64,000 nucleotides of DNA, from assembly GCF_056746865.1 (NCBI RefSeq), contig NZ_CM163382.1, one strand, 5' to 3'. Position numbers and translations under genes: made by a program. How positions within the stretch are numbered: position 1 is the stretch's first letter; each line of letters opens with the position of its first letter. Below are positions 13,050 through 41,603 of this stretch, piece by piece. Under the pieces are notes generated by a model. The model saw nothing but the letters and a program-made list of their open reading frames with translations. It made no database searches and had not been told where the DNA came from.

Positions 13050-14176
13050 GGGAGTTCTACCGCAGGGGCGGGGAACTCCAAGTGATGTCCATCATCGCAT
13101 CCAGTGCGTCCGGTTTATCCCCGCTGACGCGGGGAACACACATGAATGTCGGTTCAGACCGTGTTTTTACCCGGTTTATCCCCGCTGGCGCGGGGAACAC
13201 TGCCTCGGCGGCGGCTCTGCGCAACCGCGAAACGGTTTATCCCCGCTGGCGCGGGGAACACGTTAAACCGTGATGATCAGCAAAAGCTATTTCCGGTTTA
13301 TCTCCGCTGACGCGGGGAACACGTCAATAGGCGGCGTCCCGTAGCCGTCCCCTTCGGTTTATCCCCGCTGGCGCGGGGAACACTTGAAATGGTCCAGCAC
13401 TGCGACCGTCGGCCCCGGTTTATCCCCGCTGGCGCGGGGAACACGCTGGTGGCGCGGGCAAACGGAACAATCCCGCCGGTTTATCCCCGCTGGCGCGGGG
13501 AACACGCTAACCTATAACACGGAAAATCACACGCTAACGGTTTATCCCCGCTGGCGCGGGGAACACGGCCATTCCCCCAAGCAGACGCAGGAAGTTAACG
13601 GTTTATCCCCGCTGGCGCGGGGAACACCTGGATTTCACCTCAGCAAATGCTGGATGTGGCGGTTTATCCCCGCTGGCGCGGGGAACACCACCCCTGATAT
13701 TTTTGCCACCGTGGTTACTCCGGTTTATCCCCGCTGGCGCGGGGAACACAGAAATCAAACTCAGCGTGCAAATGGGGTAGCCGGTTTATCCCCGCTGGCG
13801 CGGGGAACACTTGCGTTATTTCTATCTGGTGAGTCGCGGCACCGGTTTATCCCCGCTGGCGCGGGGAACACGTATTTTTTATCGTCGCATGAGTCGCGGT
13901 AACCGGTTTATCCCCGCTGGCGCGGGGAACACTTCTGCCGCGCCAGCAAACGTATCGGCGGTCACGGTTTATCCCCGCTGGCGCGGGGAACACCCCAGGC
14001 CAAGCATTATATCCTGTGCGTCGTTCGGTTTATCCCCGCTGGCGCGGGGAACACACCAAGAAGCTGACGAATCAGCCCGACACGCACGGTTTATCCCCGC
14101 TGGCGCGGGGAACACCCAGTTTCATATGAGCCGCCGCGCTGGATCATCGGTTTATCCCCGCTGGCGCGGGGAACAC
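13050..14176 (-). CRISPR. Type I-E CRISPR array: 19 repeats of 29 bp (18 well formed plus one degenerate terminal repeat at 13050-13078) and 18 spacers of 32 bp
   Basis: The + strand reads CGGTTTATCCCCGCTGGCGCGGGGAACAC with an exact 61-bp period from 13111 to 14176. On the minus strand this is GTGTTCCCCGCGCCAGCGGGGATAAACCG. Variant repeats at 13111 and 13294 and the degenerate copy lie at the iap end, which fits a leader at the cas2 end. Confidence 0.97.
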
Positions 14177-14272
14177 ACTAAGCATACATAACTGTTTTTA
14201 AACAAATTTATTCCGCATCAACAATCTACCAACTAAATTAAAACATTTCCTTATTTTTAAAGAACAGATAAC
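14177..14272 (-). promoter_or_regulatory. AT-rich CRISPR leader between cas2 and the first repeat
   Basis: 96 bp of AT-rich non-coding sequence directly abutting the best-conserved repeat. Same orientation as the cas genes. Confidence 0.6.
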
Positions 14273-15482
<1,210 letters not shown>

Positions 15483-15486
<4 letters not shown>

Positions 15487-16133
15487 GCCTCTGCTCCGGG
15501 TTTGATCAGCATCAGACCACAGCCGAACGCGCGGCTTTTGCCATACCCCTGGCTCAGACGTTGCAGAAATAACCCGGGATCGGTGACCGTAAGCATCCCC
15601 GTATAATCCACGCTACTGAACTGGATCAGTTGCCGGGAGTTTTCCCGCCACAGTTGCTGTTGTCGGTAGGCATCAACCGAGGTATCCAGCAGTGTAAAAC
15701 CGCTTCTCTCCCCCTGCGCTGCCAGCCAGTCCAGCGCCGCCTGTTGTTGATGCAACCAGACATCACTTCCTTCCGCCTGCCCCCTCACCTGCCGTTTCGC
15801 CTCCATCAGCAGATCGTGGCGCTTGCCCGCTTTACAGATTGTTGGATTCGCCCGCAGGTTGAAACAAAGTTGTTGTCCGGTACGCAGCTCGGGCACAAAT
15901 GACCGGCATTCGATGGTGAACGTTTCACTTTCTGCCGGGCGTTCCTGCGACAGTACAAAAAAGCGAAACGCGCCCTGGAGTTCTTCCCGACGATAAAGAA
16001 ATTGCCTTTCTTTGCCGCCAGGGAAGAGATCCCACAGCCACTGATGCATCACATATTCCCCGCGATCCACCAGATGCAGCAACTGCGCAGGCGAAAGCTG
16101 GCCGGTATGTAAGGTTATTCTTGAGAGGTACAT
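15483..16133 (-). CDS. cas6e: Cas6e (CasE) crRNA endoribonuclease, non-K-12 I-E variant
   Basis: 216 aa from MYLSRITLHTGQ, with an AAGGAGG RBS upstream of the ATG at 16133. C-terminal G-rich motif GKSRAFGCGLMLIKP. The longer 262-aa track ORF was rejected. Confidence 0.85.
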
Positions 16134-16806
16134 GGTTCCTCCTTGCTGAGCCACGGCCCCTGATTGACGGTGCGTTCCCCAAACAACCATTGCTGACGAT
16201 TTAAAGGAACATCCCGGCGGCGCAATATTTTGCTCGCGACCAGGCCGTCGTGCTCCCCTTCCCACCAGCATTCATCCTGAAGTTTCGGGAGTGCGATTTT
16301 CAGGTCGTGGAAATGCTCCTGATACTGGTGATATGCGTTACGTAAAACATCAGACGCGTTGCCTTCAAGCAGTAACGGCGCAAGTGGTAATGCCAGCGGA
16401 TGACTTTTTCGCCCCAGATAAAGCGGAAAAACTGGATGGCGTAAACCGCCCTGCAACTGTTCGAGGCTGTAAGGCGCATCGGCTGTTGTTGCCACCGCCA
16501 CCATCCACCAGGCGTCGGTGTAGTAGTCGCGCCGGGAGATAATCGCGCTCAGAAGATCAGGGTCGCTCAACTCTTCGCGACGGCTGAAATAACGCGCTTT
16601 ACGCACCTCTTTTGGCATCTGGATTGTGTGATAATCCCGTGCCCAGCGCGGGTTACGGCTGGCGCAAACCACCAGTGAATAGTGGCGGTTAAACACGTTT
16701 AATCGTTCGGTATCATCACGCCGAATCCCTACCCCGGCAGCCAGCAGCCCCAGCAATGCTGAGCGCGAAGGCAGTTCATGGGTATGACGCACTTCGCCCG
16801 CTCCAA
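16115..16806 (-). pseudogene. cas5e: cas5e (casD) lacking its 5' end; homology stops at the island junction
   Basis: The frame reads ...GAGEVRHTHELPSRSALLGLLAAGVGIRRDD...PLYLGRKSHPLALPL (Cas5e hallmarks). The roughly 15-20 N-terminal codons, including the conserved WG segment, are missing. The TTG start at 16810 in the track is created by the junction. Confidence 0.8.
16792..16806 (+). repeat. Left island junction core (attL-like): CTTCGCCCGCTCCAA
   Basis: Identical 15-mer at 36704-36718. It lies inside the cas5e reading frame, where the reverse complement encodes GAGE. Confidence 0.75.
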
Positions 16807-16969
16807 ACAAACATTTCTCAACGTCTACTGAAGTCCATCAAATCCACGAATATCAAGCCTTTCAGCCATTTTCATAGCTTATTAACGTCTACTCACAACT
16901 ACCAGAATCTACACACAGAAGTGTATAGTAATGCGTATAGGACAAAATTTATTTTTTGGAGCTATACAC

Positions 16970-18184
16970 ATGCTGCTTTCAGACCTTGCTATCAGGCGCG
17001 CGAAGCCGAAAGAAAAGGCTTATACACTCAATGACGGTAACGGGCTTTCGTTACTCATTGAGCCGAACGGCTCGAAAGGGTGGCGACTACGTTACAGATT
17101 TGCAGGAAAGCCCAAAATGTTGTCGTTGGGCGTGTACCCTGATGTGTCTCTGTCTGATGCCAGAGCGGCAAGGGATGAGGCTAAAAGGCTTCTTGCTGGT
17201 GGTATAAATCCAAGTGAGGCCAGAAAAGCTCAAAAGCGAGAACAGGCGAGCAAATTTGGCAATACTTTTGAGGGTATCGCTCGCGAATGGTATGAAAAGC
17301 GGATCGACAGGTGGTCATCGTCATACGCCGAGGAAATGATCGAGACGTTTGAAAAAGACGTTTTTCCGTACATTGGCGGCAGGCCGATCGCAGAAATTAA
17401 GCCAATGGAGTTGCTTGCGGTTCTCTCCCGTCTTAATGACCGTGGGGCGACCGAAAAATTGCGTAAGGTTCGCCAGCGATGCGGCGAGGTGTTCCGGTAC
17501 GCAATCATCACCGGACGCGCTGAATATAACCCCGCACCAGATCTGGCAAGCGCATTTGCTCCACACAAAAAAGAGCATTATGCCTATTTGAAGGCCGACG
17601 AACTGCCGGAATTTTTCCGCGTTCTTAATACGTACACCGGAAGCCAGATCGTCAAGCTGGGTATGCGATTATTGATTCTGACAGGGCTCCGGCCAGGGGA
17701 ATTACGACAGGCAGAATGGCAGGAGATCGATTTTGATAATCGTTTGTGGGAAGTGCCTAAAGAACGAATGAAGATGCGCCGTCCTCATTGTGTGCCGCTT
17801 TCAGAACAGGCGATCGCTATTCTGGAACAGTTAAAACACATGACGGGGCAGTATCAGTTTATTTTCCCTGGTCGAATCCAGCACAGTAAGCCGATGAGTG
17901 AAATGGCGATGAACGTGCTTATTCGTCGTATTGGCTATTCTGGGCGCGTTACTGGTCATGGGTTCCGGCACACGATGAGCACGATTTTACATGAGCAGGG
18001 CTATAACACCGCGTGGATAGAAACGCAGCTTGCACACGTTGATAAGAACTCAATTCGTGGCACGTACAATCATGCGCAATATCTGGACGGGCGGCGCGAG
18101 ATGCTCCAGTGGTACGCCGACTATATGGACTCACTGGAACAGGGCGGCAACGTGGTGCATGGCAAGTTCGGAAAATGTGGATGA
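16970..18184 (+). CDS. int: P4-type tyrosine recombinase / integrase
   Basis: 404 aa from MLLSDLAIRRAKPKEKAYTLNDGNGLSLLIEPNGSKGWRLRYRF (typical P4-integrase N-terminus). Catalytic region HGFRHT...RGTYNH. GGAG RBS upstream. Confidence 0.92.
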   Translation: MLLSDLAIRRAKPKEKAYTLNDGNGLSLLIEPNGSKGWRLRYRFAGKPKMLSLGVYPDVSLSDARAARDEAKRLLAGGINPSEARKAQKREQASKFGNTFEGIAREWYEKRIDRWSSSYAEEMIETFEKDVFPYIGGRPIAEIKPMELLAVLSRLNDRGATEKLRKVRQRCGEVFRYAIITGRAEYNPAPDLASAFAPHKKEHYAYLKADELPEFFRVLNTYTGSQIVKLGMRLLILTGLRPGELRQAEWQEIDFDNRLWEVPKERMKMRRPHCVPLSEQAIAILEQLKHMTGQYQFIFPGRIQHSKPMSEMAMNVLIRRIGYSGRVTGHGFRHTMSTILHEQGYNTAWIETQLAHVDKNSIRGTYNHAQYLDGRREMLQWYADYMDSLEQGGNVVHGKFGKCG

Positions 18185-18312
18185 CTGGTTGAGTATACAG
18201 TAGTAGACTTTGAGCGACGAAAGAAAAAGCTGTGTCTAGGGTCGCTCCCGAAAAACCGTATACCTCGACGGGCTGGCACAGCCACTACAGTAGAGGACGC
18301 TGAGGTGTGCGT

Positions 18313-19110
18313 ATGATTGATATTCATGCCGAATTAAACGAATACAAAAAAGATTTTATTTCTTTACGTGAATTTCTTGAGGTCGTGCTTAAGGTCGCTG
18401 GTGATGATTATGATGTTTCAGATCTCATAACTTGGATACTCAGGAGAATAAGCGGAGAACATATCCGCCTGTACACAGTAAATGAATTTAAGCTGTTGGA
18501 ATCTTTTTGTAACCCGTATCGGGATGAATTTGATTATGATGTTCTTTATAGAAATCTGGATGCGGTTCGGAAACATGGTTGTTTACCTGGTGAGAGGGAT
18601 GAAAATGGTTTTCTGGTGTCCGGTTATTGGGAAGATCCCGAATTTGAGAACATTGGATTTATAAGGGGTGAAATTTTCGCAATTTTTCCCGATGTCCTTG
18701 ACGCGTTAACGAAGCTGGAAGGCGCTAACTCTTCTGAAAATGACGAGGTACAAGGACGCGATATTGAAAAGAAAGAGTTGCGTACAGAGGATGATTTATT
18801 ATCCCAAATCGCAATGCTGGAAAGAGAAAACGCAGAGTTAAGGGCAAGGATAGAGCAGTTAGAGCAAGAGCGCCCGATACACTTATATAAATACTGGGAT
18901 AAAGACCCATTAGCTAAGGCTATTGAGATTAGAAACAGAGAGTGGGCCAATTACGATCCAGAAAATGATTTTGCCACCAGGGGAAATCAAGAAGCGATAA
19001 CTAGGGAGCTTAAGCAGTGGGGGGCAAGTAATGCTCTTGCAACGCTCATAGAGAGGACTGCCTGCCCTATTAACCGAGACAACAGCCAAAAGAACGCAAA
19101 GCCGGATTAA
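18313..19110 (+). CDS. Hypothetical protein with a central acidic region and a coiled coil (LSQIAMLERENAELRARIEQLEQE)
   Basis: 265-aa ORF (ATG at 18313 after GAGGTG). Lower GC than the flanking int. I recognise no family motif. Confidence 0.6.
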   Translation: MIDIHAELNEYKKDFISLREFLEVVLKVAGDDYDVSDLITWILRRISGEHIRLYTVNEFKLLESFCNPYRDEFDYDVLYRNLDAVRKHGCLPGERDENGFLVSGYWEDPEFENIGFIRGEIFAIFPDVLDALTKLEGANSSENDEVQGRDIEKKELRTEDDLLSQIAMLERENAELRARIEQLEQERPIHLYKYWDKDPLAKAIEIRNREWANYDPENDFATRGNQEAITRELKQWGASNALATLIERTACPINRDNSQKNAKPD

Positions 19111-19125
19111 CGCACCATACCGCAT

Positions 19126-19270
19126 ACCCTGAGGGTGATTTACTGTTACCCTGAGGGTATTTTTTTATCTTCCCCGTCAATTTTACCATCACCCTTAGGG
19201 TAGATTTCCTCCCGATTACCATCACCCTTAGGGTTAATTTCCTTCCGGTAACCATTAGGCCTGAGGGTAT
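19126..19270. promoter_or_regulatory. Array of five CCYTNAGGGT palindromic motifs, including a ~30-bp direct repeat, upstream of alpA
   Basis: ACCCTGAGGGT at 19126 and 19148. TACCATCACCCTTAGGGT(A/T)(G/A)ATTTCCT(C/T)CC at 19184-19213 and 19217-19246. CCTGAGGGTAT at 19260. Confidence 0.5.
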
Positions 19271-19337
19271 GAAAATATTCGTTATTTCTGTGCCATGATT
19301 ACCTCGTCAAATTGAGTAGACGTTATGAGGTAAATAG

Positions 19338-19535
19338 ATGTCAAATACGCTTATTCGTTTAACAGAAGTTCAGCGTAGAACTGGATATAGCAAGGCATGG
19401 ATTTATCGCCTTATGGGGCAAGGTAAATTTCCTGCATCAGTTAAAATTGGCTCGCGAGCGATTGCTTTCGTTGAAAGTGAAATTGACGAATGGATCAATC
19501 AGCGTATTGCCGAATCACGCGGAACGGCTGCCTGA
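19338..19535 (+). CDS. alpA: AlpA/Vis-family small DNA-binding regulator or excisionase
   Basis: 65 aa: LIRLTEVQRRTGYSKAWIYRLMGQGKFPASVKIGSRAIAFVESEIDEWI, the classic AlpA HTH pattern. Confidence 0.85.
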   Translation: MSNTLIRLTEVQRRTGYSKAWIYRLMGQGKFPASVKIGSRAIAFVESEIDEWINQRIAESRGTAA

Positions 19536-19610
19536 TTAAATAGCTACGGGTTATTGCCCAAGCTATCCACTAGCAAATAAAAAGTAACTTAATTCGATAG
19601 CGGAGTTTTT

Positions 19611-20435
19611 ATGAAACTGCGAAAAACGCCCGTACAGGGGCAGGGCTTTGTTCGGCCTGAAAACCAGAATCTGCAAAATTTCGGCGAAATTATCCCGGTT
19701 ATTTCCGGCGTTATTGGCGGGCGTGAAGCCGCTGTTGTTAGCGCAAAAGCGTTACACAAAGCGTTGGGCGTGGGAAAAGACTTCTCTACATGGATCACTG
19801 ATCGTATCTCTGAATATGACTTCACCATTGGGTACGATTACTCAGTCCATAAAACAATTTCCCCAAATTTGGGGAAAAGCCCGAATGGCGAGGCTTACAG
19901 CAAGATTAAGCACTCTGGCAGACCCGGTAAAGACTATCTGTTAAGTGTCGGAATGGCGAAAGAACTGGCAATGATCGAACGCACCGAACAGGGCCGCGCC
20001 GTTCGTCAGTACTTCATCAAATGCGAGGAGGAGCTACACAAGGTAGCGCCTGTACGTTCCGCAGCGTTACGCCGGGAACTGAAAGCCCGTATCACCGTAG
20101 CCAGCTACTTTAAGCCAATGTGTGCCGCGCTGGAGGCGTACCGGGCTGAACTGGGTAAAAACACGCTCCAGCACCACTACACCACGGAAGCCAATATGCT
20201 GGCGCGTATCGTGCTGGGTGGCATGAATGCAAAACAGTGGGCGCAGGCGAACGGCATCACAGGCGAACCACGCGACCACATGAGCACGCTGCAGCTTGAG
20301 CACCTTTCTTACCTTGAGCAGAGCAATATCACGCTGATTGAGTTAGGCCAGGACTACCACCAGCGGAAAGCTGAATTAATTCGTCTTTCGCAACGCTGGT
20401 TAGCCCGCCGCATGGAGGTGAGCAGCCATGCGTAA
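19611..20435 (+). CDS. AntA/AntB-type phage antirepressor domain protein
   Basis: 274 aa. The N-terminal segment VVSAKALHKALGVGKDFSTWITDRISEYDF and LLSVGMAKELAMIERTEQGRAVRQYFIKCEEEL resemble AntA/KilAC antirepressor domains. Confidence 0.65.
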   Translation: MKLRKTPVQGQGFVRPENQNLQNFGEIIPVISGVIGGREAAVVSAKALHKALGVGKDFSTWITDRISEYDFTIGYDYSVHKTISPNLGKSPNGEAYSKIKHSGRPGKDYLLSVGMAKELAMIERTEQGRAVRQYFIKCEEELHKVAPVRSAALRRELKARITVASYFKPMCAALEAYRAELGKNTLQHHYTTEANMLARIVLGGMNAKQWAQANGITGEPRDHMSTLQLEHLSYLEQSNITLIELGQDYHQRKAELIRLSQRWLARRMEVSSHA

Positions 20436-20985
20436 ACCTGTCTTTTATGCCGGTCGCACTGAAATCTCTGTCATTAAATTCGATGACATTCAGGTGCGCA
20501 TAGTGAGTATCAACGGCGAGCCGTGGTTTGTTGGCGCTGATGTGTGTGCCGCGCTGGAAATCAGCAATGTTACTGATGCCGTTTCAGTTCTGGATAACGA
20601 TGAGGTAATGACCCTAGCTTTAACCGAGGGTCATTCCGGTAAGCGTGGTGGTGCCAGAAGCTGGAATGTTGTCTCTGAATCAGGTTTCTACAAACTGATC
20701 GCCCGCAGCCGTAAAGCTTCCACACCAGGCACATTTGCGCACCGTTTCAGTAACTGGGTATTCCGCGAGGTGATTCCTTCAATCCGCAAAACGGGGGGTT
20801 ATGGTGTTCCGTTTGCCATGCTGAATGATTTCAGTAAACGTCAGGCTGCATATCAACAGGAAGCCAGCAAACGCGGTTACAGGTTACAGCAATGCAAAGA
20901 GGCAAAAGATGCACTGGAACGAGAAGAGCGGGCGCTATGGCGTAAATATCAGCCTGATTTTCTGGAGGGTGAAAGCAATGTGTAA
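20428..20985 (+). CDS. Bro-N domain (prophage antirepressor-like) protein
   Basis: 185 aa. FDDIQVRIVSINGEPWFVGADVCAALEI...SESGFYKLIARSRK...FSNWVFREVIPSIRKTGGY is a typical Bro-N pattern. Overlaps the upstream gene by 8 nt. Confidence 0.75.
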   Translation: MRKPVFYAGRTEISVIKFDDIQVRIVSINGEPWFVGADVCAALEISNVTDAVSVLDNDEVMTLALTEGHSGKRGGARSWNVVSESGFYKLIARSRKASTPGTFAHRFSNWVFREVIPSIRKTGGYGVPFAMLNDFSKRQAAYQQEASKRGYRLQQCKEAKDALEREERALWRKYQPDFLEGESNV

Positions 20986-21153
20986 CGATCCGAACGTTAC
21001 AGAAAGAAAAAGCGCCCCGTTGCTGGATAACAGGCAAAACAAAGGCGACCGGGATAGGTCGCCAGTGGGAACAAAGGAAATCAAACGCATCGCCAACAAT
21101 GCCAGATTTGCGGCTGGTGGGCAATGTGATCAGTGTGCTGGCTTGCTGGTGGG

Positions 21154-21351
21154 CTATTCCTGCTCTTTAGCATCGCCATACTGCGATGTTTTCCAGGTAT
21201 GCGATTCCATTTTTGTGCGCCTGTACTCTTTTAAGAACTTCTCAAGGACAAACGCACATGGCGCAAATCTTTCCTGTTCTTGTTCGCTTACCGCATTTTT
21301 GCGTTGTTTTTTCCTGGATGAGGATAATTTCTTTAATGATTTGTCAGTCAT
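21154..21351 (-). CDS. Small basic hypothetical protein (65 aa); its C-terminus is paralogous to the neighbouring RHH protein
   Basis: ORF ending ...GDAKEQE. Weak RBS. Same size and tail as the 21409-21606 ORF. Confidence 0.4.
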   Translation of the reverse strand: MTDKSLKKLSSSRKKQRKNAVSEQEQERFAPCAFVLEKFLKEYRRTKMESHTWKTSQYGDAKEQE

Positions 21352-21408
21352 CGTAGATACCTGTAACCCTGTGCGCCACAGTTCACCGCACCACGGCGCT
21401 GGTGATGG

Positions 21409-21606
21409 TTACTCCTGCTCTTTGGCCTTCCGGCGCTGTTCATATTTTAATTTGCGTCCACAGGCATCTAAGACCCATGCGGAAAAATTAGCACTAGGAT
21501 TAGTTAATTTTTCTTGTTCAACACTGGCATCAATCCCATCTATAAGCTCGTGCGGGAATCGAATATTTTTCTTTGCTGATTTGTTGTTTGTGTTTCCGCT
21601 AGACAT
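21409..21606 (-). CDS. Ribbon-helix-helix (Arc/MetJ-like) DNA-binding protein; candidate island repressor
   Basis: 65 aa. NIRFPHELIDGIDASVEQEK...NFSAWVLDACGRKL fits a beta-strand/helix/helix RHH pattern. Good GAGGTG RBS. Divergent from the replication operon. Confidence 0.55.
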   Translation of the reverse strand: MSSGNTNNKSAKKNIRFPHELIDGIDASVEQEKLTNPSANFSAWVLDACGRKLKYEQRRKAKEQE

Positions 21607-21674
21607 TGGTACACCTCACTTAAATGGATTTGATGGGCGCACACAATACAGCAAAAAAAGTGAGAAGTTAAGTA

Positions 21675-21703
21675 TTGACATGTGCGCACACATGATTTTA
21701 ATC
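21675..21703 (+). promoter_or_regulatory. Putative sigma-70 promoter with a palindromic operator in the spacer, driving the icd-like/primase operon
   Basis: TTGACA (21675-21680), then the perfect palindrome TGTGCGCACA (21681-21690), then a TTAATC/TAATCT -10 candidate 17-18 nt downstream. Related GCGCACACA and TGTGCGCAAG copies lie nearby. Confidence 0.4.
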
Positions 21704-21810
21704 TGTGCGCAAGTTTGGGTTGCATTGCTCAAATTAAGCAACGCCCCGCAGTGCTCGCAACACATGCAGGGCGTCTAACCACCAACGATAGAAAGCGTAT
21801 CGAGGTAGCT

Positions 21811-22014
21811 ATGTTAAATCATACCACACACCCGCAAGGGCGGGACTCGCACAACCTGAATAAATACATCTGGCGTTTTATCGCCCTGAGCACCGCACAA
21901 CCACGCGTAATACACATCGAGGCCGCCAGCGAACAGGAAGCCCGTCAGCAATCCCCGGCTGGCTGCGTGATGGTATTTACTGCCCGCATCCGTCAGGGGG
22001 AATACTATGCGTGA
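21811..22014 (+). CDS. Small protein resembling satellite/prophage Icd-like cell division inhibitor family
   Basis: 67 aa from the ATG at 21811 (GAGGTA RBS). The YIWRFIALS...VIHIEAASEQEARQQSP pattern resembles Icd-like proteins of P4-type islands. This assignment is from memory only. Confidence 0.5.
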   Translation: MLNHTTHPQGRDSHNLNKYIWRFIALSTAQPRVIHIEAASEQEARQQSPAGCVMVFTARIRQGEYYA

Positions 22015-22264
22015 TGAACGATTTATTCTTCTGGAGCAAAAATTCAGTGAAGCGCCAAAAAATGAAATTGATGCTCTTTTGCATATCGCGAATATGCTAA
22101 AAGTAGCAACGTTCCTTATAGTTTCGAATCTGGAGCATGAAACGGCGTTAGATATACTGAACAGTGCTGTCGATTATTCTGAATATATTGCCGAGGATAA
22201 ATACAGGCAATTACCAGATTTGTTAGCCCATAAATATAAAGAAGAACCTCACACCGGGAAATAA
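22007..22264 (+). CDS. Hypothetical protein (85 aa); the gene is AT-rich
   Basis: ORF overlaps the upstream stop. Visibly lower GC than its neighbours. Confidence 0.5.
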   Translation: MRDERFILLEQKFSEAPKNEIDALLHIANMLKVATFLIVSNLEHETALDILNSAVDYSEYIAEDKYRQLPDLLAHKYKEEPHTGK

Positions 22265-22266
22265 AC

Positions 22267-22569
22267 ATGAAGAAGATTAAATTTACTGGCTTAAATGCCA
22301 GCGGACAGACTCACCCGAAAATCAGGATCGGGGATATTTTCCGGGATAAATATGGTGACAGCGTGGTTATTAATTCCGTGTATGAACGGCACATTACATA
22401 CCGCCGCGCAGGGTACGACTATGACTGTGTGATGCCCGTTCATCAGTTCCGGCGTGATTTTTCACTGGTATGTGCAGCACCACGCAGTAAGCCCACCAGT
22501 AAAGAGAAAGCACGGGCAAATATTCAGGTAATAAAGAACATGATTAACGCATTCAGGGGCAAGAAATGA
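22267..22569 (+). CDS. Hypothetical protein (100 aa), possibly DUF4222-like
   Basis: ORF tightly packed between neighbours. Its 3' end overlaps the primase start (ATGA). Confidence 0.5.
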   Translation: MKKIKFTGLNASGQTHPKIRIGDIFRDKYGDSVVINSVYERHITYRRAGYDYDCVMPVHQFRRDFSLVCAAPRSKPTSKEKARANIQVIKNMINAFRGKK

Positions 22570-24692
22570 AACGCGCACCGAATTTAAAGCACCAGCCGAA
22601 AGACAAAATGACGGAGGTGATTATCTTTGCGGGTAGTGATGCCTGGGCACATGCGAAAGAGTGGAGCGAATGGGCCGGAAAGCATATTGCGGCAGATGAT
22701 ACACATCCAGTTATTCTTGGACCGGAACAACTGGCGAGTCTGGCAGACACGCAAATCATCGACAAAGGGCGCTATTACGTGCGCGTTTATCGTGCTGGTG
22801 AAATATCAGAGCAGCACCTTACACAGATAGCGACACTGCTTGCAGTGGCGGGTGTGAAGGAGGCGCGTTGCTACCGCAGCTTTGTTGATCAGCAGCCGGA
22901 GGACTGGACACCGCGCATGGCTGGACTGAAGGATGATGCGGAACGCGGTAACAGTCTGGTGATCAACCTTCCGGCGAAGACAAATTTCACCGGAAATTAT
23001 GATGACGAATTAAAGCCTCGTGTTGAAAGTCGCGTCGATGGTGTTTTCTGGGTAACGCCCAAAGTGGACAAGCAGTCAGGCGAAATTATCCGGCCTGAGA
23101 CGTGGTTATGTTCTCCGCTTGAACTACTGGGAACAGGAACAATCGGCAAAGAGCATTACCGCGTGATGCGCTGGAAAAAACCAGCAAACCATGAGGTCAT
23201 TACAATGGCGGTCCCGTGCGGAGGCATTGGTGACCGTGACGGCTGGCGGTTGCTGAAAGACCACGGCCTTAACGTGACGACCAACGGCAAATACAGGGCT
23301 ATCTTGGCTGACTGGATGCAGTTAAGCGGAAACCATGAGGAATGGCAGTTAAGCACAACAACGGGGTGGCATTTTGGTGCGTACATCATGCCGGATGGTT
23401 CGATCATCGGTGAATCAGAGAAACCCATCCTGTTTACCGGAAAAACTGCCGCTGTTAATGGCTATTCCGTGGCGGGAACAGCGGAGGGCTGGCGCGATAC
23501 CGTGGCACGGCTGGCTGGTGGTAATCCGTCCATGATGCTGGGTGTGGCGGTATCGCTATCTGCACCATTAATCGGGCTGGTGGGTGCTGACGGCTTCGGG
23601 GTTCATCTTTTTGAGCAATCATCAGCAGGTAAAACCACCACACAGAACATTGCATCAAGTTTATGGGGAGAGCCGGACGCGCAACGGCTGACCTGGTACG
23701 GAACGGCGTTAGGTATCGCCAACGAGGCCGAAGCACATAATGACGGGCTGTTACCCCTGGATGAAATAGGCCAGGCCGGAAACGCACGGGAGGTGTCCAC
23801 GTCAGCCTATACGCTGTTTAACGGTTCCGGGAAATTACAGGGGGCGAAGGACGGCGGCAACAGGGAGATAAAACACTGGCGTACGGTGGCAATCAGCACC
23901 GGAGAAATGGACGTTGAAACATTCCTCAAAACGGAAGGGATAAAAATTAAAGCGGGACAGCTTGTCCGTCTGCTTAACGTACCGATGGAAAAGGCCTCGC
24001 AGTTTCACGAATACAGCACCGGAAAGGCGCACGCAGACGCGTTAAAAGATGCCTGGACAGAAAATCACGGGGCGGCAGGTCGTGAGTGGGTTAAATGGCT
24101 GGCAGGCCACCAGCAGGAGGCAAAGGACGCGGTAAGGGCATGTCGCGAGCGGTGGCGCAACCTGATACCGGAGAGCTACGGCGAGCAGGTTCACCGTGTG
24201 GGGGAAAGATTCGCCGTACTGGAGGCCGCGCTTGTGCTTTCCGGTCATGTTACAGGCTGGGATGTTCAGGCGTGCCGTGATGCAGTTCAGCATAACTTTA
24301 ATGCCTGGGTGAAGGAATTCGGCACGGGCAACAGGGAATTTAAACAGATGGTTGAACAGGCTGAGGCGTTTTTGTCGTCGTTCGGGTTCAGTCGATACCT
24401 TCCCTATCCAAACAGCGACGAGCGTGATTTACCGATTAAAGACCTTGCCGGATACAGAAAGGGGAGTATCAGAAACGAAGATGACGAGTTCCGTTTTTAC
24501 ACGTTCCCGCATGTGTTTGAGGGTGAGATAGCACAGGGATTTAATCCGTCTCACTTTGCCCGCGCGTTGAGTGCAGCCGGAATGCTGGAAGCGGGAGGCG
24601 ACCGCCGTTACAAGAAAAAGGCGCTCGGCAGGATTGGCGGGAAGCAACATATTTTTTACGTGCTGATGTTCCAGCCTGAAGCAGAAGATTAA
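22566..24692 (+). CDS. Satellite/prophage replication protein: primase-helicase with P-loop (DUF927-type)
   Basis: 708 aa. Walker A FEQSSAGKTTTQ and Walker-B-like LLPLDEIGQ. The size and its position just before the iterons match P4-alpha / PICI Pri-Rep-like proteins. Confidence 0.8.
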   Translation: MKRAPNLKHQPKDKMTEVIIFAGSDAWAHAKEWSEWAGKHIAADDTHPVILGPEQLASLADTQIIDKGRYYVRVYRAGEISEQHLTQIATLLAVAGVKEARCYRSFVDQQPEDWTPRMAGLKDDAERGNSLVINLPAKTNFTGNYDDELKPRVESRVDGVFWVTPKVDKQSGEIIRPETWLCSPLELLGTGTIGKEHYRVMRWKKPANHEVITMAVPCGGIGDRDGWRLLKDHGLNVTTNGKYRAILADWMQLSGNHEEWQLSTTTGWHFGAYIMPDGSIIGESEKPILFTGKTAAVNGYSVAGTAEGWRDTVARLAGGNPSMMLGVAVSLSAPLIGLVGADGFGVHLFEQSSAGKTTTQNIASSLWGEPDAQRLTWYGTALGIANEAEAHNDGLLPLDEIGQAGNAREVSTSAYTLFNGSGKLQGAKDGGNREIKHWRTVAISTGEMDVETFLKTEGIKIKAGQLVRLLNVPMEKASQFHEYSTGKAHADALKDAWTENHGAAGREWVKWLAGHQQEAKDAVRACRERWRNLIPESYGEQVHRVGERFAVLEAALVLSGHVTGWDVQACRDAVQHNFNAWVKEFGTGNREFKQMVEQAEAFLSSFGFSRYLPYPNSDERDLPIKDLAGYRKGSIRNEDDEFRFYTFPHVFEGEIAQGFNPSHFARALSAAGMLEAGGDRRYKKKALGRIGGKQHIFYVLMFQPEAED

Positions 24693-24716
24693 CTTCCCTG
24701 TGTGAGGTAAAAAGTT

Positions 24717-24841
24717 GCGGGTTATGCGGGTTATCCTGTGCATAAGTTAATTAACTGAATGATTAAAAAGGAAATTAATAACCCGCACGTAACCCGCAAA
24801 ACGGCAGTTATAACCCGCAAATGTGCGATTGTAACCCGCAA
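24717..24841. repeat. Iteron cluster 1 (ori/crr-like): 2 tandem TGCGGGTTA, an AT-rich spacer, then 4 inverted TAACCCGCA spaced 11/21/21 bp
   Basis: TGCGGGTTA at 24717 and 24726. TAACCCGCA at 24780, 24791, 24812 and 24833. The AT-rich core is 24745-24779. The cluster starts 25 bp after the primase stop. Confidence 0.7.
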
Positions 24842-24902
24842 AATTTCACTGTAAGAGTGTAAACAAGCGTAACTATCACGTTAAAACCGGAGAACAAACA
24901 GC

Positions 24903-25328
24903 ATGACGGCGCAAATATCAGCTTACGGGCGGCTGGTGGCTGACCCGCAGTTAAAGACCACCAGCAAGGGCACACAAATGGCGATGGCGAGTATGGCGGT
25001 CCCCCTTCCATGCAATCAGACAGATGACGGAACGGCGACGATGTGGTTATCCGTCCTGGCGTTTGGCAGACAGGCTGACGCACTGGCAAAACACCACAAA
25101 GGCGAACTGGTGAGCGTGGCCGGTAACATGCAGGTGAGCTGGTGGACGGGCCAGAACGGCGAAACGAGGCAGGGATGGCAGGTTATCGCAGACAGCGTAA
25201 TCAGTGCGCGAACGGCGCGACCGGGCGGCAAAAAAGGCCAGCAGGGGCAGGCTACTGATGCACTGAACAGGGCAAAGCAACAGACAGGCCAGCACGATGA
25301 TCCGTACGGGGACGGGATACCGTTTTAA
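24903..25328 (+). CDS. ssb: Single-stranded DNA-binding protein (OB fold) with SSB-like acidic C-terminal tip
   Basis: 141 aa. YGRLVADPQLKTTSKGTQMA... is an OB-fold pattern. A G/Q-rich linker leads to the C-terminus DDPYGDGIPF (compare E. coli SSB, ...DDDIPF). Confidence 0.7.
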   Translation: MTAQISAYGRLVADPQLKTTSKGTQMAMASMAVPLPCNQTDDGTATMWLSVLAFGRQADALAKHHKGELVSVAGNMQVSWWTGQNGETRQGWQVIADSVISARTARPGGKKGQQGQATDALNRAKQQTGQHDDPYGDGIPF

Positions 25329-25411
25329 TTCACAACAGCGAACAGAGTAATTACCCAGTGCGCCGTAAAGCCCCGTCCTTCAGGTCGGGGATATAAGGCG
25401 CGGTTTTCCAC

Positions 25412-25828
25412 CTAACTAGGTGTTTGCTGTTGTTCAATGTATTGGCGGATGATGGATATTGGCGCACCTCCGCAGCTACTGGCAAAATAGCTGGGACTCC
25501 ATAAAACGCCTTTGTAGTAATACCTGACTGCAATATCTGGTCGATCTCGTCGCAATAATCTACTCGATACGCCCTTGAGACTGTTCACCAGGGTGGATAT
25601 CGCCAATTTGGGAGGATAGTTAATTAGCAGGTGAACGTGATCTCGTTCTCCATCCATTTCAACCAGTTCAGCTTCAAAATCAGCACATACACTTGAAAAG
25701 TAAGTGCGTAGTTTTTCTATTGCGTCATGGTCAAAAATCTGGCGTCGGTACTTGGTAACAAAGACCAGGTGAACGTGCATCAGGAAGACACAGTGCCTTC
25801 CACGTCGGATATCGGTTTCTTTTTTCAT
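25412..25828 (-). CDS. tnpA: IS200/IS605 Y1 (HUH) transposase TnpA
   Basis: 138 aa from MKKETDIRRGRHCVFLMHVHLVFVTKYRR, with HUH motif HVHLL and catalytic-Tyr region SPSYFASSCGG. The longer 178-aa track ORF was rejected. Confidence 0.9.
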   Translation of the reverse strand: MKKETDIRRGRHCVFLMHVHLVFVTKYRRQIFDHDAIEKLRTYFSSVCADFEAELVEMDGERDHVHLLINYPPKLAISTLVNSLKGVSSRLLRRDRPDIAVRYYYKGVLWSPSYFASSCGGAPISIIRQYIEQQQTPS

Positions 25829-25850
25829 AGGCCAAAGTATAATTTGGCAT

Positions 25851-27059
25851 ATGAAACGACTACAAGCTTTCAAATTCCAGTTAAGACCAAATGGAAAACA
25901 GGAGCGTGAAATGAGGCGCTTCGCGGGCGCATGTCGTTTCGTTTTCAATCGTGCTCTGGCGCTTCAGAATGAGAATCATGAGGCCGGGAACAAATATATT
26001 TCTTATGCAAAGATGACTTCCTGGCTGGTTGAATGGAAAAATGCTACTGAAACGCAATGGCTTAAAGATTCTCCCTCACAGCCATTGCAGCAGTCACTGA
26101 AAGACCTTGAGCGAGCCTACAAAAATTTCTTTCAGAAGCGTGCCGCTTTTCCCCGATTCAAAAAGCGGGGACAGCATGATGCATTCCGCTATCCGCAGGG
26201 TGTTAAGCTCGATCAGGAAAACAGCCGTATTTTTCTGCCGAAACTGGGCTGGATGCGCTACCGGAACAGCCGTCAGGTCACGGGTGTTGTGAAAAATGTC
26301 ACTGTCAGCCAGTCCTGCGGTAAGTGGTACATCAGTATTCAGACAGAAAGTGAAGTATCAACTCCGGTTCACCCTTCAGCATTAATGGTCGGGCTGGATG
26401 CTGGCGTGGCTAAACTCGCCACGCTGTCAGATGGCACGGTCTTTGAGCCTGTAAACAGTTTTCATAAAAACCAGAAGAAGCTGGCGAGACTTCAGCGCCA
26501 GTTAAGCCGCAAGGTTAAATTCAGCAACAACTGGCAGAAGCAGAAACGCAAAATACAGCGACTGCATTCCCGTATCGCAAATATCCGCAGGGACTACCTT
26601 CACAAAGTCACAACGACCATCAGCAAAAACCACGCAATGATAGTCATTGAGGATTTGAAGGTCAGCAACATGTCAAAGTCAGCCTCGGGTACGGTCAGCC
26701 AGCCGGGGCGCAATGTCCGGGCAAAATCAGGTTTAAACCGTTCGATACTGGATCAGGGCTGGTATGAAATGCGCCGTCAGCTTGAGTACAAGCAGCTCTG
26801 GTGTGGCGGTCAGGTGCTTGCTGTTCCGCCAGCGTACACAAGCCAGCGTTGCGCGTGCTGTGGTCATACAGCGAAAGAAAATCGCCTGTCACAAAGTCAA
26901 TTCAGATGCCAGGTATGTGGATATACAGCGAACGCCGATGTAAACGGCGCTCGTAACATTTTAGCGGCGGGGCACGCCGTTCTTGCCTGTGGAGGGATGG
27001 TGCAGTCAGGCCGCCCGTTGAAGCAGGAACCCACCGAAATGATTCAGGCGACAGCCTGA
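25851..27059 (+). CDS. tnpB: TnpB (OrfB_IS605) RuvC-like RNA-guided nuclease
   Basis: 402 aa. RuvC triad contexts GLDAGV, VIEDLK and ADVNGARNI, plus a zinc finger CACCGH...CQVCG. All appear intact. Confidence 0.9.
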
Positions 27060-27264
27060 ACGTAGCAGGAATCCACGTCCTTCAGGGCGTGGAGGATGTC
27101 AAATATCAATGCGACGACTGGAATGTTCCAGGAAGGCACAGAGGCCACCGAAGCAACCGGATAATTTAGAAGACCTGAAACGGTCGCTTAAACGCACTGA
27201 AAAAGAAATGGGGATAGATGGGATCGGGAAATCAGTATGGCGTAACTACCAGAAGTAAGCACAG

Positions 27265-27289
27265 AGCCGGAGCAATCCGGCTTTTTTTT
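27265..27289 (+). terminator. Rho-independent terminator
   Basis: AGCCGG-AGCAAT-CCGGCT hairpin followed by T8. Confidence 0.6.
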
Positions 27290-27389
27290 GGCTGAAATCA
27301 ATCAATCTGTTTTTGTGATAGAAATATATTTATCTACCACTTTTTTCGATCAATAATGTGCATAATTTAGTCATTAAGAGGAAATTGCT

Positions 27390-27596
27390 GTGAATTGTAT
27401 TAACGACCTGAACACAGGCGATGTCAGAGGTGGTTCCGTTCATCTGGATGCACAGACCGTGATGCGCCTTAAGCAGTACAGAATCGACCATGTGAACAAT
27501 CACCCTGATCAGCCATTACCAGGCGTGGCGCAGATTGTCAGACATGCCGTAAACGCCTGGCTTAATCAGAATGGTTTTGCATCGGGGGGTGAGTAA
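27390..27596 (+). CDS. Small RHH-like protein (68 aa, GTG start) preceding the giant-protein operon
   Basis: GAGGA RBS. SVHLDAQTVMRLKQYRIDH...GVAQIVRHAVNAWL fits a strand-helix-helix pattern. Confidence 0.45.
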   Translation: MNCINDLNTGDVRGGSVHLDAQTVMRLKQYRIDHVNNHPDQPLPGVAQIVRHAVNAWLNQNGFASGGE

Positions 27597-27692
27597 TGAA
27601 TCGCTGGTACAGCATCAAAGCAGAGGGACGCCAATGTTATCTAACTCAGGTTTTATGAATTCTGACTCCCGATTCAAAATAGGAGGTTACTA

Positions 27693-30224
27693 ATGCCAGT
27701 CGTACCAACAGTATCCGGACGTCAGGTTGAGAGCCGTGGAGTTCAGTCAGCAGGCTTGCAGACGTTTTCTCAGCCAGGTATTGGTGATGCTTTTGTTCGG
27801 GCAGGGGCAGAGGCAATTGATGTTTTTGGTCAGGCAAAACAGCGTGCCAATATTGCCTTGATTCAGGAGGCATCCCTTAAACTCAGTCAGATAGGCAGTG
27901 ATCTGCTGAATAATCCTGAAACAGGATTGCTTAACCTGAAAGGGAAAAATGCTATTGGAAAAGGCCATGAGTATACACAGCAGTTTGATGCTCAGATCGA
28001 ACAACTGGCTATGTCGCTGCCGGATGAACAGGCTCGTAATGCTTTCATGCAGCAGGCGCAGCAGCAGCGTATTCAGTTCGCTACGCAGGCCGGGAGGTAC
28101 GAGATAGGGCAAATAAATGCCTACGAAGAAGGCCAGTTTCAGGCGACACTGCTGAATAATGGTAAAAATGCCTCAGCATTATATGGCGACAACGCAGCAT
28201 ACATATTGGCTAATACGCAAACTTTCCAGCAAATTGAGGATTACGGTATTGCGCATGGCTGGAGCGACGAGCAAATCCAGGCCAAGAAAATCGAGTTTAA
28301 AGAAGCAACAGCAAAAGCAACTGCTCAAAATGCTATTGGAGCAAACTATCTTCAGGTAAGACAGCAAAATGGCGAGTTAAGCGATACTGCTGCTGGATCT
28401 CGCCGTGCTGTAGCAGATAGTGGCTCTTCCGATCGTACCCGCGGTATACGCAACAATAACCCCGGCAATCTTGAATACAGCAAAACTAATCCGTGGATTG
28501 GGCAGACTGGTGATGATGGTCGCTTTGCCAAATTCGAAACCCCTGAACACGGTATTCGCGCGCTTGGTCGCAATTTGCTGTCGTATCAGCGTCAGGGTTA
28601 TGACACCATCAGCGAAATAATTAATCGCTGGGCACCGGCCAGTGATGATAATAAAACTGATGCTTATATACGGGCAGTATGTGCTCAGCTCGGTGTAACT
28701 CCTGACCAGCCGCTTGACGCATCAAATCCTGACACACTGAAATCTCTGTGCAAAGCAATTATTCATCATGAGCAAGGCAGTCAGCCGTACAGTGATCAGC
28801 AATTGGCCGCTGGCGTTAGTGCCGCACTGGGGCTTTCTCAGCTACCGACAAAAAATAAACGTTATACCGGTGTAGCCTGGTTCGATGCTTTAAGTGAATC
28901 AGATCAGGCCAGCGTGTTGCGACAGACGGATGCATTAGCCAGACAGCAGCAGGCTGAATATAGAACGATGCTCGAAAGCCGGGTTCGCGATGCAACGGCT
29001 GCGTATATGCGTGGCGTTGAATTTCCTAACCCGCCTGGTGAGGGTGAGTTCATTGCTGCTTATGGTGTCAGAGAAGGAAACCTGCGATATACCGAGTTCA
29101 GAAATTTGCAGATCGCCGGACAGTATATAGGCTCTTTCCGCAACATGCCGACAAGCAGCATTACCGCATATGTTGAGCAATTACGCCCGGATACTGGTGA
29201 GACAGGGGAGGGGTATGCGTCTCGTGCGGAGTTATTCGACCGGGTATCGGCGGCAGCCACGAAGGTAATAACCCAGAGGCAGAATAATCCGTTTAGTGCA
29301 GCGGTGGAAATCGGAGCCTATAAGCCGATCACCAGCAACAACCCTGACGACATCACTGCCGAGGTGGCTAACCGTTTCTCGTCGCAGGAAAGCTTACGCG
29401 CGTTGGGAATTAATGCCCCACTCCTCAACAGTGAAGAGGCGGCTGCGCTGGCACAGCAGGTGCGCGGCACTCAGAACGTTGACCAGACAATTAAACTGTT
29501 GCAGAGCATGGGGGAGAAGCTGCCTGCGCCAGCAATACGGCAGGTGGCATCTGTAATTGCTCCGAACAGTGCGGCAACAGCCTATTCTGCGCTGCTGCTG
29601 GGCACGCCGGATAACCAGTACGACAACACCAGGCCGACGATCCCATATAGTCAGTTCATCGGGTATAAGCCGACGATGAACAAGTACGACGTTGCAAAGG
29701 TTATTCTTTCCGGCGACCAACTACTGAATCCGACGAAGGCCATGAAGAATGCGGGCATAACTCCGGTACAGTTGCCGAGCGAAGATAAGATGAAAGACGC
29801 TTTCGACGAACAGGTAGGTAATGCATTTGCCCGTAACCCGCAGTTACGCCAGATCAGTTATAGCCTTTTCAAAGCCGCTTACGCAGGAATAGCTTATCAA
29901 TCTGGTGATGCCTCTACGGTAAGAACCAGTATGCCTGATACAGACATTGTAGCTGATGCCGTGAAGTATGCTACTGGCGGTATATACAATGGTTTTAATG
30001 GCGGCGACGTTGTAATGCCTTTTGGCATGGATAAATCTACTTTCAAAGATCGCTATACCACATCTGCGAAACAAGCACTGAAAGATGCCGGACTTAACGT
30101 AAATGCAGTGTCAAATTTCACGCCAGTTAATATCGGCAATAACCGGTATCGGCTTGTAAATGGTAGCGGACGCTGGGCAACAGATCCCAGAACCAATAAA
30201 GCTATTGTCGTGAGGGTTGAATAA
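27693..30224 (+). CDS. Large protein (843 aa); candidate phage internal-virion/ejection-type protein with an RNNNPGN-motif central domain
   Basis: Strong AGGAGG RBS. N-terminus MPVVPTVSGRQVESRGVQSAGLQ. Q/A-rich helical regions. GIRNNNPGNLEY at nt 28449-28469. No nucleotide-binding motifs seen. The function call is tentative. Confidence 0.75.
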   Translation: MPVVPTVSGRQVESRGVQSAGLQTFSQPGIGDAFVRAGAEAIDVFGQAKQRANIALIQEASLKLSQIGSDLLNNPETGLLNLKGKNAIGKGHEYTQQFDAQIEQLAMSLPDEQARNAFMQQAQQQRIQFATQAGRYEIGQINAYEEGQFQATLLNNGKNASALYGDNAAYILANTQTFQQIEDYGIAHGWSDEQIQAKKIEFKEATAKATAQNAIGANYLQVRQQNGELSDTAAGSRRAVADSGSSDRTRGIRNNNPGNLEYSKTNPWIGQTGDDGRFAKFETPEHGIRALGRNLLSYQRQGYDTISEIINRWAPASDDNKTDAYIRAVCAQLGVTPDQPLDASNPDTLKSLCKAIIHHEQGSQPYSDQQLAAGVSAALGLSQLPTKNKRYTGVAWFDALSESDQASVLRQTDALARQQQAEYRTMLESRVRDATAAYMRGVEFPNPPGEGEFIAAYGVREGNLRYTEFRNLQIAGQYIGSFRNMPTSSITAYVEQLRPDTGETGEGYASRAELFDRVSAAATKVITQRQNNPFSAAVEIGAYKPITSNNPDDITAEVANRFSSQESLRALGINAPLLNSEEAAALAQQVRGTQNVDQTIKLLQSMGEKLPAPAIRQVASVIAPNSAATAYSALLLGTPDNQYDNTRPTIPYSQFIGYKPTMNKYDVAKVILSGDQLLNPTKAMKNAGITPVQLPSEDKMKDAFDEQVGNAFARNPQLRQISYSLFKAAYAGIAYQSGDASTVRTSMPDTDIVADAVKYATGGIYNGFNGGDVVMPFGMDKSTFKDRYTTSAKQALKDAGLNVNAVSNFTPVNIGNNRYRLVNGSGRWATDPRTNKAIVVRVE

Positions 30225-35040: not shown

Positions 35041-35354
35041 TGACGAGAGATAAAATTGAATATATTGCTTCTCTTAAATATGAAGCTGAGAAATGGAGAA
35101 GGATTGGCGGGTGGGGAACATTAATATCACTCTCTGCTTTACTTATAGACTCCTGGTTCAGACATATTGATGCAGCATCATTACTTTTTGAATCAGCAGT
35201 ACTTGGTGGATTCATTTGCTGTTGGGGTGGTAATTATGATCGGGCGTCCAAACATAAGAGAGAACTTGACGCGATATGTTTTGCTTTATTCGGTAAGGAT
35301 TACGAAAGTTCTGACCTTGATATAATTGAATTCAACAAAACGGAACTATCGTGA
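35040..35354 (+). CDS. Small predicted two-TM membrane protein (104 aa), last gene of the operon
   Basis: TGATG overlap with the upstream gene. Hydrophobic segments WGTLISLSALLIDSWF and SAVLGGFICCWGG. AT-rich. Confidence 0.55.
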   Translation: MTRDKIEYIASLKYEAEKWRRIGGWGTLISLSALLIDSWFRHIDAASLLFESAVLGGFICCWGGNYDRASKHKRELDAICFALFGKDYESSDLDIIEFNKTELS

Positions 35355-35362
35355 CATGTCAC

Positions 35363-35387
35363 AGGCCGCTTTCGCGGCCTTGTTTTT
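35363..35387 (+). terminator. Rho-independent terminator of the giant-protein operon
   Basis: AGGCCGC-TTTC-GCGGCCT hairpin followed by TGTTTTT, 9 nt after the stop codon. Confidence 0.65.
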
Positions 35388-36058: not shown

Positions 36059-36212
36059 TGCGGGTTATTTTGGGGCGTTTGCGGGTTATTTGGGATGTTT
36101 TGCGGGTTATGTGATGCTTGAATAATGAACAGTGTATTTTGCAACATATTGATACTAAAGAACAAAAAATAGTTAGCATACTAAGATAACCCGGTAACCC
36201 GCATAACCCGCA
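36059..36212. repeat. Iteron cluster 2: 3 TGCGGGTTA spaced 21/21 bp, an AT-rich spacer, then tandem inverted TAACCCGCA copies; a mirror image of cluster 1
   Basis: TGCGGGTTA at 36059, 36080 and 36101. TAACCCGG (degenerate) at 36187 and TAACCCGCA at 36195 and 36204. The AT-rich core is about 36121-36186. Confidence 0.65.
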
Positions 36213-41599: not shown

Positions 41600-41603
41600 T
41601 GAA

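Follow-up and report, generated by a model that had tools for sequence, protein, structure and literature searches.

A 7-bp block shared by cas5e and the tRNA-Gly gene glyU as a probable secondary attachment site for a genomic island in Escherichia coli

The tyrosine integrases of temperate phages are able to use pseudo-attB sites, as is known from the secondary attachment (att) sites of phage lambda. The Sa3int phages of staphylococci turn to alternative sites once their primary site is altered (PMC8649754), attachment sites are associated with large genome rearrangements both for prophages in Streptococcus pneumoniae (PMC8637289) and for integrase-driven inversions in Thermococcales (PMC5495485), transposition of insertion sequences (IS) into cas genes inactivates CRISPR-Cas (PMC10359306) and a clade of integrases from satellites or phage-inducible chromosomal islands (PICI) repeatedly targets the late genes of prophages (PMC10111431). 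No published account of a glyU-type integrase striking the Cascade gene cas5e (casD) was found in literature searches, which brought up only these related phenomena. Such a case is provided by a stretch of 64,000 nucleotides from the NCBI RefSeq assembly GCF_056746865.1 (contig NZ_CM163382.1), referred to here as the window, in which the CRISPR-Cas region of Escherichia coli is broken inside cas5e and joined to a genomic island, island Y, whose counterpart in strain SCU-105 lies next to the tRNA-Gly gene glyU. The junction between positions 16798 and 16799 was probably made, with a likelihood of about 80%, by the island's own tyrosine integrase at a weak secondary attachment site in cas5e, where a second copy of the island would have integrated before homologous recombination inverted the segment between the two copies.

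The left 16.8 kb of the window is the cysCND-iap-CRISPR-cas region of E. coli, and what is left of cas5e occupies 16115..16798 on the minus strand. This remnant consists of codons 22-248 and the stop codon and is 100% identical to intact cas5e over exactly that span; the minus-strand translation of 16115-16900 contains ...LFGAGEVRHTHELPSRSALLGLLAAG... and runs to the stop codon at 16115-16117. A megablast search of 5,426 complete E. coli genomes with 16115-17400 as query found this type of cas5e in 2,667 of them, with many intact alleles 100% identical over 16115-16798 and zero match past 16798. When the window is aligned to the intact gene of strain 118UI, the break falls at 16798/16799: the window has GACGCA-CTTCGCC-CGCTCCAAACAAAC and 118UI has GACGCA-CTTCGCC-GGGGGCATCGACGCC. 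Intact Cas5e consists of 248 amino acids and starts with MSQYLIFQLHGPMASWGVDAP-GEV, and codons 1-21, including the start and the WG motif, are therefore lost from the copy in the window. An earlier note on this DNA had described a reading frame that is intact from its stop at 16115 up to an integrase core, a left crossover at that core inside cas5e and the replacement of the N-terminal codons, WG motif included, by island DNA, all of which is borne out, the missing codons numbering 21. Its reading of the reverse complement of the core as G-A-G-E-V is right for G-E-V, which belongs to cas5e, and wrong for the preceding G-A, which does not. The 225-amino-acid remnant product matches PF09704 (Cas_Cas5d) and thus remains a Cas5e by sequence. 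There is no complete cas5e open reading frame (ORF) between cas7e and cas6e in the window, as codons 1-21 and cas7e are absent and island DNA follows past 16798. Public protein records contain the 225-amino-acid product with a GTG start; a 231-amino-acid product with a TTG start is absent from them. The junction between cas5e and the core is no assembly quirk, since it is present in two independent assemblies of the window's clone, GCA_031020925.1 (10,754 nt with 1 mismatch) and SRR17709973.

The core in question, the 15-nt sequence CTTCGCCCGCTCCAA, equals the 3' end of glyU as found in SCU-105 and has exactly two copies in the window, at 16792 and 36704 (0.36 matches being expected at ≤2 mismatches), while ARAGORN finds no tRNA gene anywhere within the 64 kb. 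The left copy (16792..16806, plus strand) is a hybrid and is termed attL*. Its first seven positions, the block CTTCGCC at 16792..16798 (plus strand), are common to intact cas5e and the glyU/att core, and positions 16799-16806 (CGCTCCAA) come from the side of the island and the tRNA gene and not from cas5e. The right copy, attR TTCCCTTCGCCCGCTCCAA, spans 36700..36718 (plus strand) and matches the 3' end of glyU over 19 nt, with the 15-nt core at 36704-36718. The idea that 13-15 nt of cas5e coding sequence happen to equal the glyU core, and that intact alleles would contain GGAGCGGGCGAAG, has to be given up: this sequence is absent from intact alleles, which read CTTCGCC|GGGGGCAT at the site, and intact cas5e (CTTCGCCGGGGGCAT) compared with glyU (CTTCGCCCGCTCCAA) shows 7 contiguous identities and 10/15 overall. 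CTTCGCC is common to glyU, to attP/attR and to intact cas5e, and the switch from one parent to the other falls inside it, not only in attL* but in every hybrid junction described below (attL*, attR* and an island-free joint). Because all exchanges map inside CTTCGCC, the block would lie in, or form, the crossover (overlap) region of the integrase. An integrase exchange with its overlap region inside these 7 bp is further suggested by the reciprocal, conservative nature of the products and by an island side that always begins at the island's normal end. In the window that side shows 100% identity to the arm found at glyU in SCU-105, and the break falls inside the att core (15-19 nt) of a glyU-specific island. 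In the glyU islands of SCU-105 and ETEC1747 the attR core is without one C (CTTCGCC-GCTCCAA; 38641-38654 of locus L004 and 25565-25578 of locus L005), so that attL and attR are identical there only up to the right-hand end of CTTCGCC; the full CTTCGCCCGCTCCAA is present in the attR of the window and in the island-free joint of SRR23378764.

The two sides of the junction come from regions that lie apart in SCU-105. Local BLAST aligns positions 1-16798 of the window with SCU-105 1,151,880 to 1,135,937 on the minus strand and positions 16792-64000 with SCU-105 979,493 to 1,027,273 on the plus strand, the two blocks overlapping by the 7 bp CTTCGCC, so that the cas and glyU sides are joined head-to-head. 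To the right of the island, 36719..64000 (plus strand) is the normal chromosome downstream of glyU, with a ygeQ-like GH15 gene followed by the ETT2 type III secretion cluster as far as yqeH, collinear with SCU-105 but in inverted orientation with respect to the window's cas side. Since the right end of the island abuts this normal glyU-downstream DNA, what the window shows is one joint of an inversion rather than the outcome of a plain insertion. With respect to SCU-105 the inverted segment measures ~156 kb, made up of ~138 kb of chromosome and the island. A simple deletion between cas5e and glyU was considered and rejected, because the right end of the island meets the glyU-downstream DNA in inverted orientation, which is wrong for a deletion, and because ETEC1747 retains the intervening DNA with eno, pyrG, relA and other genes. 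An IS3-family element that SCU-105 carries in ETT2 (1,019,635-1,020,967) is missing from the window at 57694-57698, and ETT2 is otherwise collinear between the two at 99-99.8% identity.

Exchange at the same bases of cas5e is found in several other strains. ETEC1747, a pig isolate from Belgium, has an island X, related to island Y, with an intact int at glyU and a second copy of island X in cas5e; this second copy is inverted, 99.9-100% identical to the strain's own glyU copy and has most of int deleted. Its two ends read GACGCA[CTTCGCC]CGCTCCAAAC (attL*) and TTGTTCC[CTTCGCC]GGGGGCATC (attR*), no base is gained or lost at either of them and both exchanges fall inside CTTCGCC, so the insertion has every appearance of a clean, conservative product of attP and a pseudo-attB. 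Compared with the window, ETEC1747 differs at 26/684 positions of cas5e and at 5/254 positions of the island arm (arms 98% identical). A 154-amino-acid hybrid ORF predicted to run from cas5e codons 1-21 into the right arm of island Y is present as an exact protein in public assemblies. In one of these, GCA_046604685.1, contig 10 (138 kb) has the order actS - intact glyU - int - Y - attR* - cas5e-5' - cas7 - cse2 - cse1 - cas3 and contig 4 (197 kb) the order yqeF - yqeG - native glyU flank - TTGGAGCG/GGCGAAG - cas5e-3' - cas6e - cas1 - cas2 - iap. Between them these contigs contain both reciprocal joints of an inversion between glyU and cas5e; the island is present only once, the cas5e-3' joint is free of mobile DNA, and SRR23378764 has the same two joints. 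In SRR8989464 the same attR* joint adjoins a cas3-cas7 region whose identity to either of the other alleles is only ~95% as far as the junction itself. The exchange is thus the same to the base with two island types and on three cas alleles whose divergence is 4-5% (95.2-95.4% identity for locus L019), which favours recurrence over one inherited event. The proposals that cas5e served as a secondary attB, that it is a recurrent target and that independent insertions and inversions should exist at the site therefore find their counterparts in the ETEC1747 insertion, in the inversion joints of GCA_046604685.1 and SRR23378764 and in the SRR8989464 junction on its 95%-identical allele.

These genomes can be arranged into a pathway in which glyU would already have carried island Y when a second copy, as attP, integrated into cas5e. 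The cas5e site points opposite to glyU, and a copy inserted there is for that reason inverted with respect to the glyU copy, so that homologous recombination between the two inverts the interval and does not delete it. Two inverted copies flanking the segment before it flips, the state that the second step would produce, are found in ETEC1747. Homologous recombination between the inverted copies would then flip the ~138 kb of chromosome (~156 kb with the island) and yield the arrangement cas5e-3' - attL* - Y - attR - ygeQ/ETT2 as in the window. In other strains one of the hybrid copies would later have been excised, so that, as in GCA_046604685.1, only one island is left and one of the joints has none. 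Each of these three stages occurs in nature, the two-copy insertion in ETEC1747, the flipped form with the island at cas5e-3' in the window and the flipped form with one hybrid copy gone in GCA_046604685.1; the order of the steps and catalysis by the integrase are our reading of them. That the window's own genome may contain a second island copy is suggested by short-read contigs of the same clone which stop exactly past 16791, one (L007) at 16868, 77 nt or k bases on, and another (L011) at 16821, 30 nt or k-1 bases on. We infer from contig ends at k and k-1 that the clone has a second copy of the core and left arm.

A one-step inversion would dispense with this second copy. In this alternative the integrase joins an att site of the island already present at glyU (attL in the lineage of the window, attR in GCA_046604685.1) directly to the inverted pseudo-site in cas5e, and the route, while unlikely, is one to be taken seriously. 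Lambda Int is able to recombine attL with attB-like sites, and GCA_046604685.1 and SRR23378764 contain exactly the two products expected of attR x cas5e together with one island, which is more parsimonious than insertion, recombination and excision. However, contigs of the window's clone end precisely k bases past 16791, an end point that implies the second copy of core and left arm, and ETEC1747 shows that the insertion intermediate exists. Moreover, attL x cas5e would destroy glyU, and a synthetic junction query for the corresponding glyU-body|cas5e-5' joint (..GATTCCCTTCGCC|GGGGGCATCGAC..) found it in none of the 5,426 complete genomes and in none of the JGI metagenomes. That the joint arose without the integrase, through illegitimate recombination or repair at a microhomology present by chance, is barely credible: 7 bp of identity is typical of such joints and CTTCGCC occurs ~1 per 5-7 kb of DNA scanned, but the joint always lies inside the island's att core, is reciprocal and conservative and recurs at the same base across three cas alleles and two island types, and a clean insertion of one whole island bounded by its normal ends is unlike random breakage. 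The two remaining alternatives concern the history and the reality of the inverted state. A single ancestral cas5e::island junction spread by homologous recombination of the cas region, in which case there would be no recurrent target, would account for the identical cas allele and island Y in the window's clone and GCA_046604685.1, and E. coli recombines often. This is nevertheless improbable given that the island in the cas5e of ETEC1747 is a different one, X (with the 5/254 arm differences), and almost identical to the island at this strain's own glyU, that the cas3-cas7 region of SRR8989464 is only 95% identical right up to the junction and that the glyU flank of GCA_046604685.1 is a different allele which is without ETT2. 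There is about as little to be said for the inverted connectivity of the window being an assembly choice between two inverted 20-kb copies, the true state being a simple insertion as in ETEC1747. A second copy is indeed suspected in the clone, and an inverted repeat of 20 kb can be mis-resolved or coexist in both orientations; yet real inversions with unique, repeat-free joints are present on the 197-kb and 138-kb contigs of GCA_046604685.1, and such a choice would touch only the right-hand connectivity, as the cas5e/core junction is backed by three assemblies.

Second-copy integration by the island integrase followed by inversion thus remains the preferred explanation, and several observations weigh against it. 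The cas5e site with its flanks matches attB at 11/27 positions, and several others among the ~30 further CTTCGCC sites compared in ~200 kb of E. coli DNA reach 12-13. Its resemblance to attB therefore comes down essentially to the 7-bp block, and, as the site is no outstanding copy of attB beyond these 7 bp, that resemblance does not account for its repeated use; the apparent reuse may in part reflect a search that was made only at cas5e. The event is also rare. Of the 2,648 complete genomes that have this cas5e region, 2,643 show an uninterrupted site; attL* and attR* are found only in ETEC1747 (1/2,648) and the island-free joint in none (0/2,648). The attL*/scar pattern has no match in the JGI metagenomes and only two among the GTDB representatives, in metagenome-assembled genomes of Marinobacterium and Longimicrobium that are treated, uninspected, as chance matches. 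Lastly, dependence on the integrase is deduced from junction geometry alone, and the two-copy state of the window's clone from the arithmetic of contig ends, with the other end of the inversion lying outside the window.

Island Y (16799..36703, plus strand) is 19.9 kb in size and encodes Int, AlpA-like, AntA, Bro-N, Icd-like and DUF4222 proteins, a DUF927 primase/helicase, SSB, ProQ/FinO and PerC proteins and three large cargo ORFs. In SCU-105 the corresponding island directly follows an intact glyU and has its other end at the same ygeQ/ETT2 flank; the two are 99.5-100% identical, and 99.5-99.7% identical over the island as a whole outside an IS200/IS605-family insertion at 25412-27059 of the window, which is absent from the SCU-105 glyU island and encodes a Y1 TnpA (minus strand) and a TnpB/OrfB with a Cas12f-like TNB domain (plus strand). 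The left arm (16807..16969, plus strand) is a non-coding stretch of 163 nt upstream of int, with 100% identity to what comes after glyU in SCU-105 from 979500 onward. It leads into the gene for an intact tyrosine integrase of the P4/lambda heterobivalent type (16970..18184, plus strand; 404 amino acids), assigned to the integrase family PHROG 1, whose arm-binding, core-binding and catalytic domains correspond to PF13356 (Arm-DNA-bind_3), PF22022 (Phage_int_M) and PF00589 (Phage_integrase), all above the gathering score. In SCU-105 and ETEC1747, int likewise lies directly after an intact glyU and the island terminates in a partial copy of the glyU 3' end. Homologues of int with at least 80% of the query covered are present in 78 complete genomes and adjoin tRNA-Gly in all matches listed. 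An AlpA-like helix-turn-helix (HTH) protein of 65 amino acids is encoded at 19338..19535 (plus strand); its equivalent in locus L018 matches PF05930 (Phage_AlpA), SCU-105 has it annotated as an HTH regulator, and it is a candidate for a role in island excision and regulation. The three large ORFs (27693-35040; 843, 686 and 925 amino acids) give very strong PHROG matches to 'head protein / injection transglycosylase' and 'virion structural protein' and no match in Pfam or PADLOC, on which ground a role as defence-system cargo was rejected. The version of the island in GCA_046604685.1 is without them. By its gene content island Y appears satellite- or PICI-like, though the three cargo ORFs match virion/ejection-type families, an odd cargo for an island of the int-alpA-primase kind.

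ORFs that cross attR into the island have varied N-termini (proteins P0002-P0015). One of them (MFGAGEGNN..., 20 contigs) consists of right arm - core - left arm, a sign that other strains carry the island in tandem at glyU or as an excised circle. Among the 15 matches listed of such ORFs, the cas5e hybrid is the only one with a core that is not from a tRNA gene.

What remains of the CRISPR-Cas locus on the window's side of the break (13050..16133, minus strand) comprises an array of 17 spacers at 13050-14176, cas2 at 14273-14566, cas1 at 14563-15486 and cas6e at 15483-16133, and the gene order CRISPR-cas2-cas1-cas6e is also annotated in 118UI and SCU-105. The cas1e gene (14563-15486, minus strand) has an internal stop at codon 200, which is annotated in 118UI and SCU-105 as well, both of which have an intact cas5e. 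Adaptation was therefore lost in this cas allele before cas5e was broken, and the system was already decaying. None of the 17 spacers of the window's array, nor any in the ETEC1747 arrays (13 and 7 spacers), matches island X or Y at ≤6 mismatches. There is thus no evidence of self-targeting having selected for the disruption, and self-targeting was rejected as a selective cause.

Small variants close to the break occur in related sequences. The sole difference of the window from 10.7 kb of GCA_031020925.1, and from SRR17709973, is at 16804 inside the core, C as opposed to A (CTCCAAAC vs CTCAAAAC); the A variant makes a TGA on the cas5e strand just upstream of the remnant ORF. In six loci with an intact site (L008, L009, L010, L012, L013 and L015), changes of 1 nt in length near the equivalent of ~16799-16830 truncate the called Cas5e to 225 amino acids. 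Some of these changes lie in the C5/G5 run beside CTTCGCC; others are close to the WG codons, a few bases farther upstream. They could be sequencing errors or real frameshifts. Most other entries of 225 or 233 amino acids, namely those of the same six loci and of Shigella (P0022 and P0025), were accordingly dismissed as junctions, since they have the intact site with a 1-nt frameshift or another start call.

With Cas5e deprived of its start and first 21 codons, Cascade presumably cannot be made. In addition the operon is split, with cas3-cse1-cse2-cas7 ~140-156 kb away from cas6e-cas1-cas2-CRISPR and in opposite orientation. For E. coli the functional consequences are probably small: cas1 already has its internal stop, and the type I-E system of E. 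coli is usually silenced. It is distinctly improbable that hits on cas5e are a selected back-up specificity by which glyU-type satellite integrases disable Cascade when glyU is occupied ('anti-CRISPR by integration'). If this were true, precise excision or flipping between inverted copies could restore or re-break the operon and thereby constitute a reversible switch of CRISPR immunity. Irrespective of selection, the natural products by themselves narrow down to ≤7 bp where an uncharacterised integrase specific for glyU makes its crossover, and attP and int together with the cas5e site offer a tractable system for what makes a pseudo-attB usable. Island-free cas5e-3' joints, in which no mobile DNA is left, would be counted in surveys as unexplained cas truncations.

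The case is best regarded as a new example of known processes, against which it can be set point by point. Like the satellites whose integrases target prophage late genes, island Y is a satellite-like element (int, alpA-like gene, primase/helicase) situated within an ORF; there the gene is the primary, evolved target, whereas island Y has its primary target in glyU and uses cas5e only occasionally as a secondary one, in 1/2,648 complete genomes (PMC10111431). As in the inactivation of cas genes by IS transposition, a cas gene is disrupted by mobile DNA that inserted itself in nature, and interference would be lost, but the agent would be the site-specific integrase of a tRNA-targeting island and not a transposase, it acts at one defined position, and the cas5e insertion is in principle reversible by precise excision and can split the operon via inversion (PMC10359306). 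The inversions of S. pneumoniae and Thermococcales are similarly large and have attachment sequences of mobile elements at their endpoints, unlike the present inversion in which one endpoint is the unique host gene cas5e, and not a second element or tRNA gene, and both reciprocal joints fall in a 7-bp block (PMC8637289; PMC5495485). There is also a likeness to the pseudo-attB systems of phages such as lambda and the Sa3int phages (PMC8649754), which share with this locus a heterobivalent tyrosine integrase, a weak site having the crossover bases of the primary attB, use of that site when the primary one is unavailable (here with glyU occupied, as in ETEC1747) and conservative reciprocal junctions. 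It differs from them in that the site lies in a Cascade gene which has been struck repeatedly in natural isolates, and in that this site is inverted and ~140 kb from the primary one, so that a second copy of the island sets up a large inversion.

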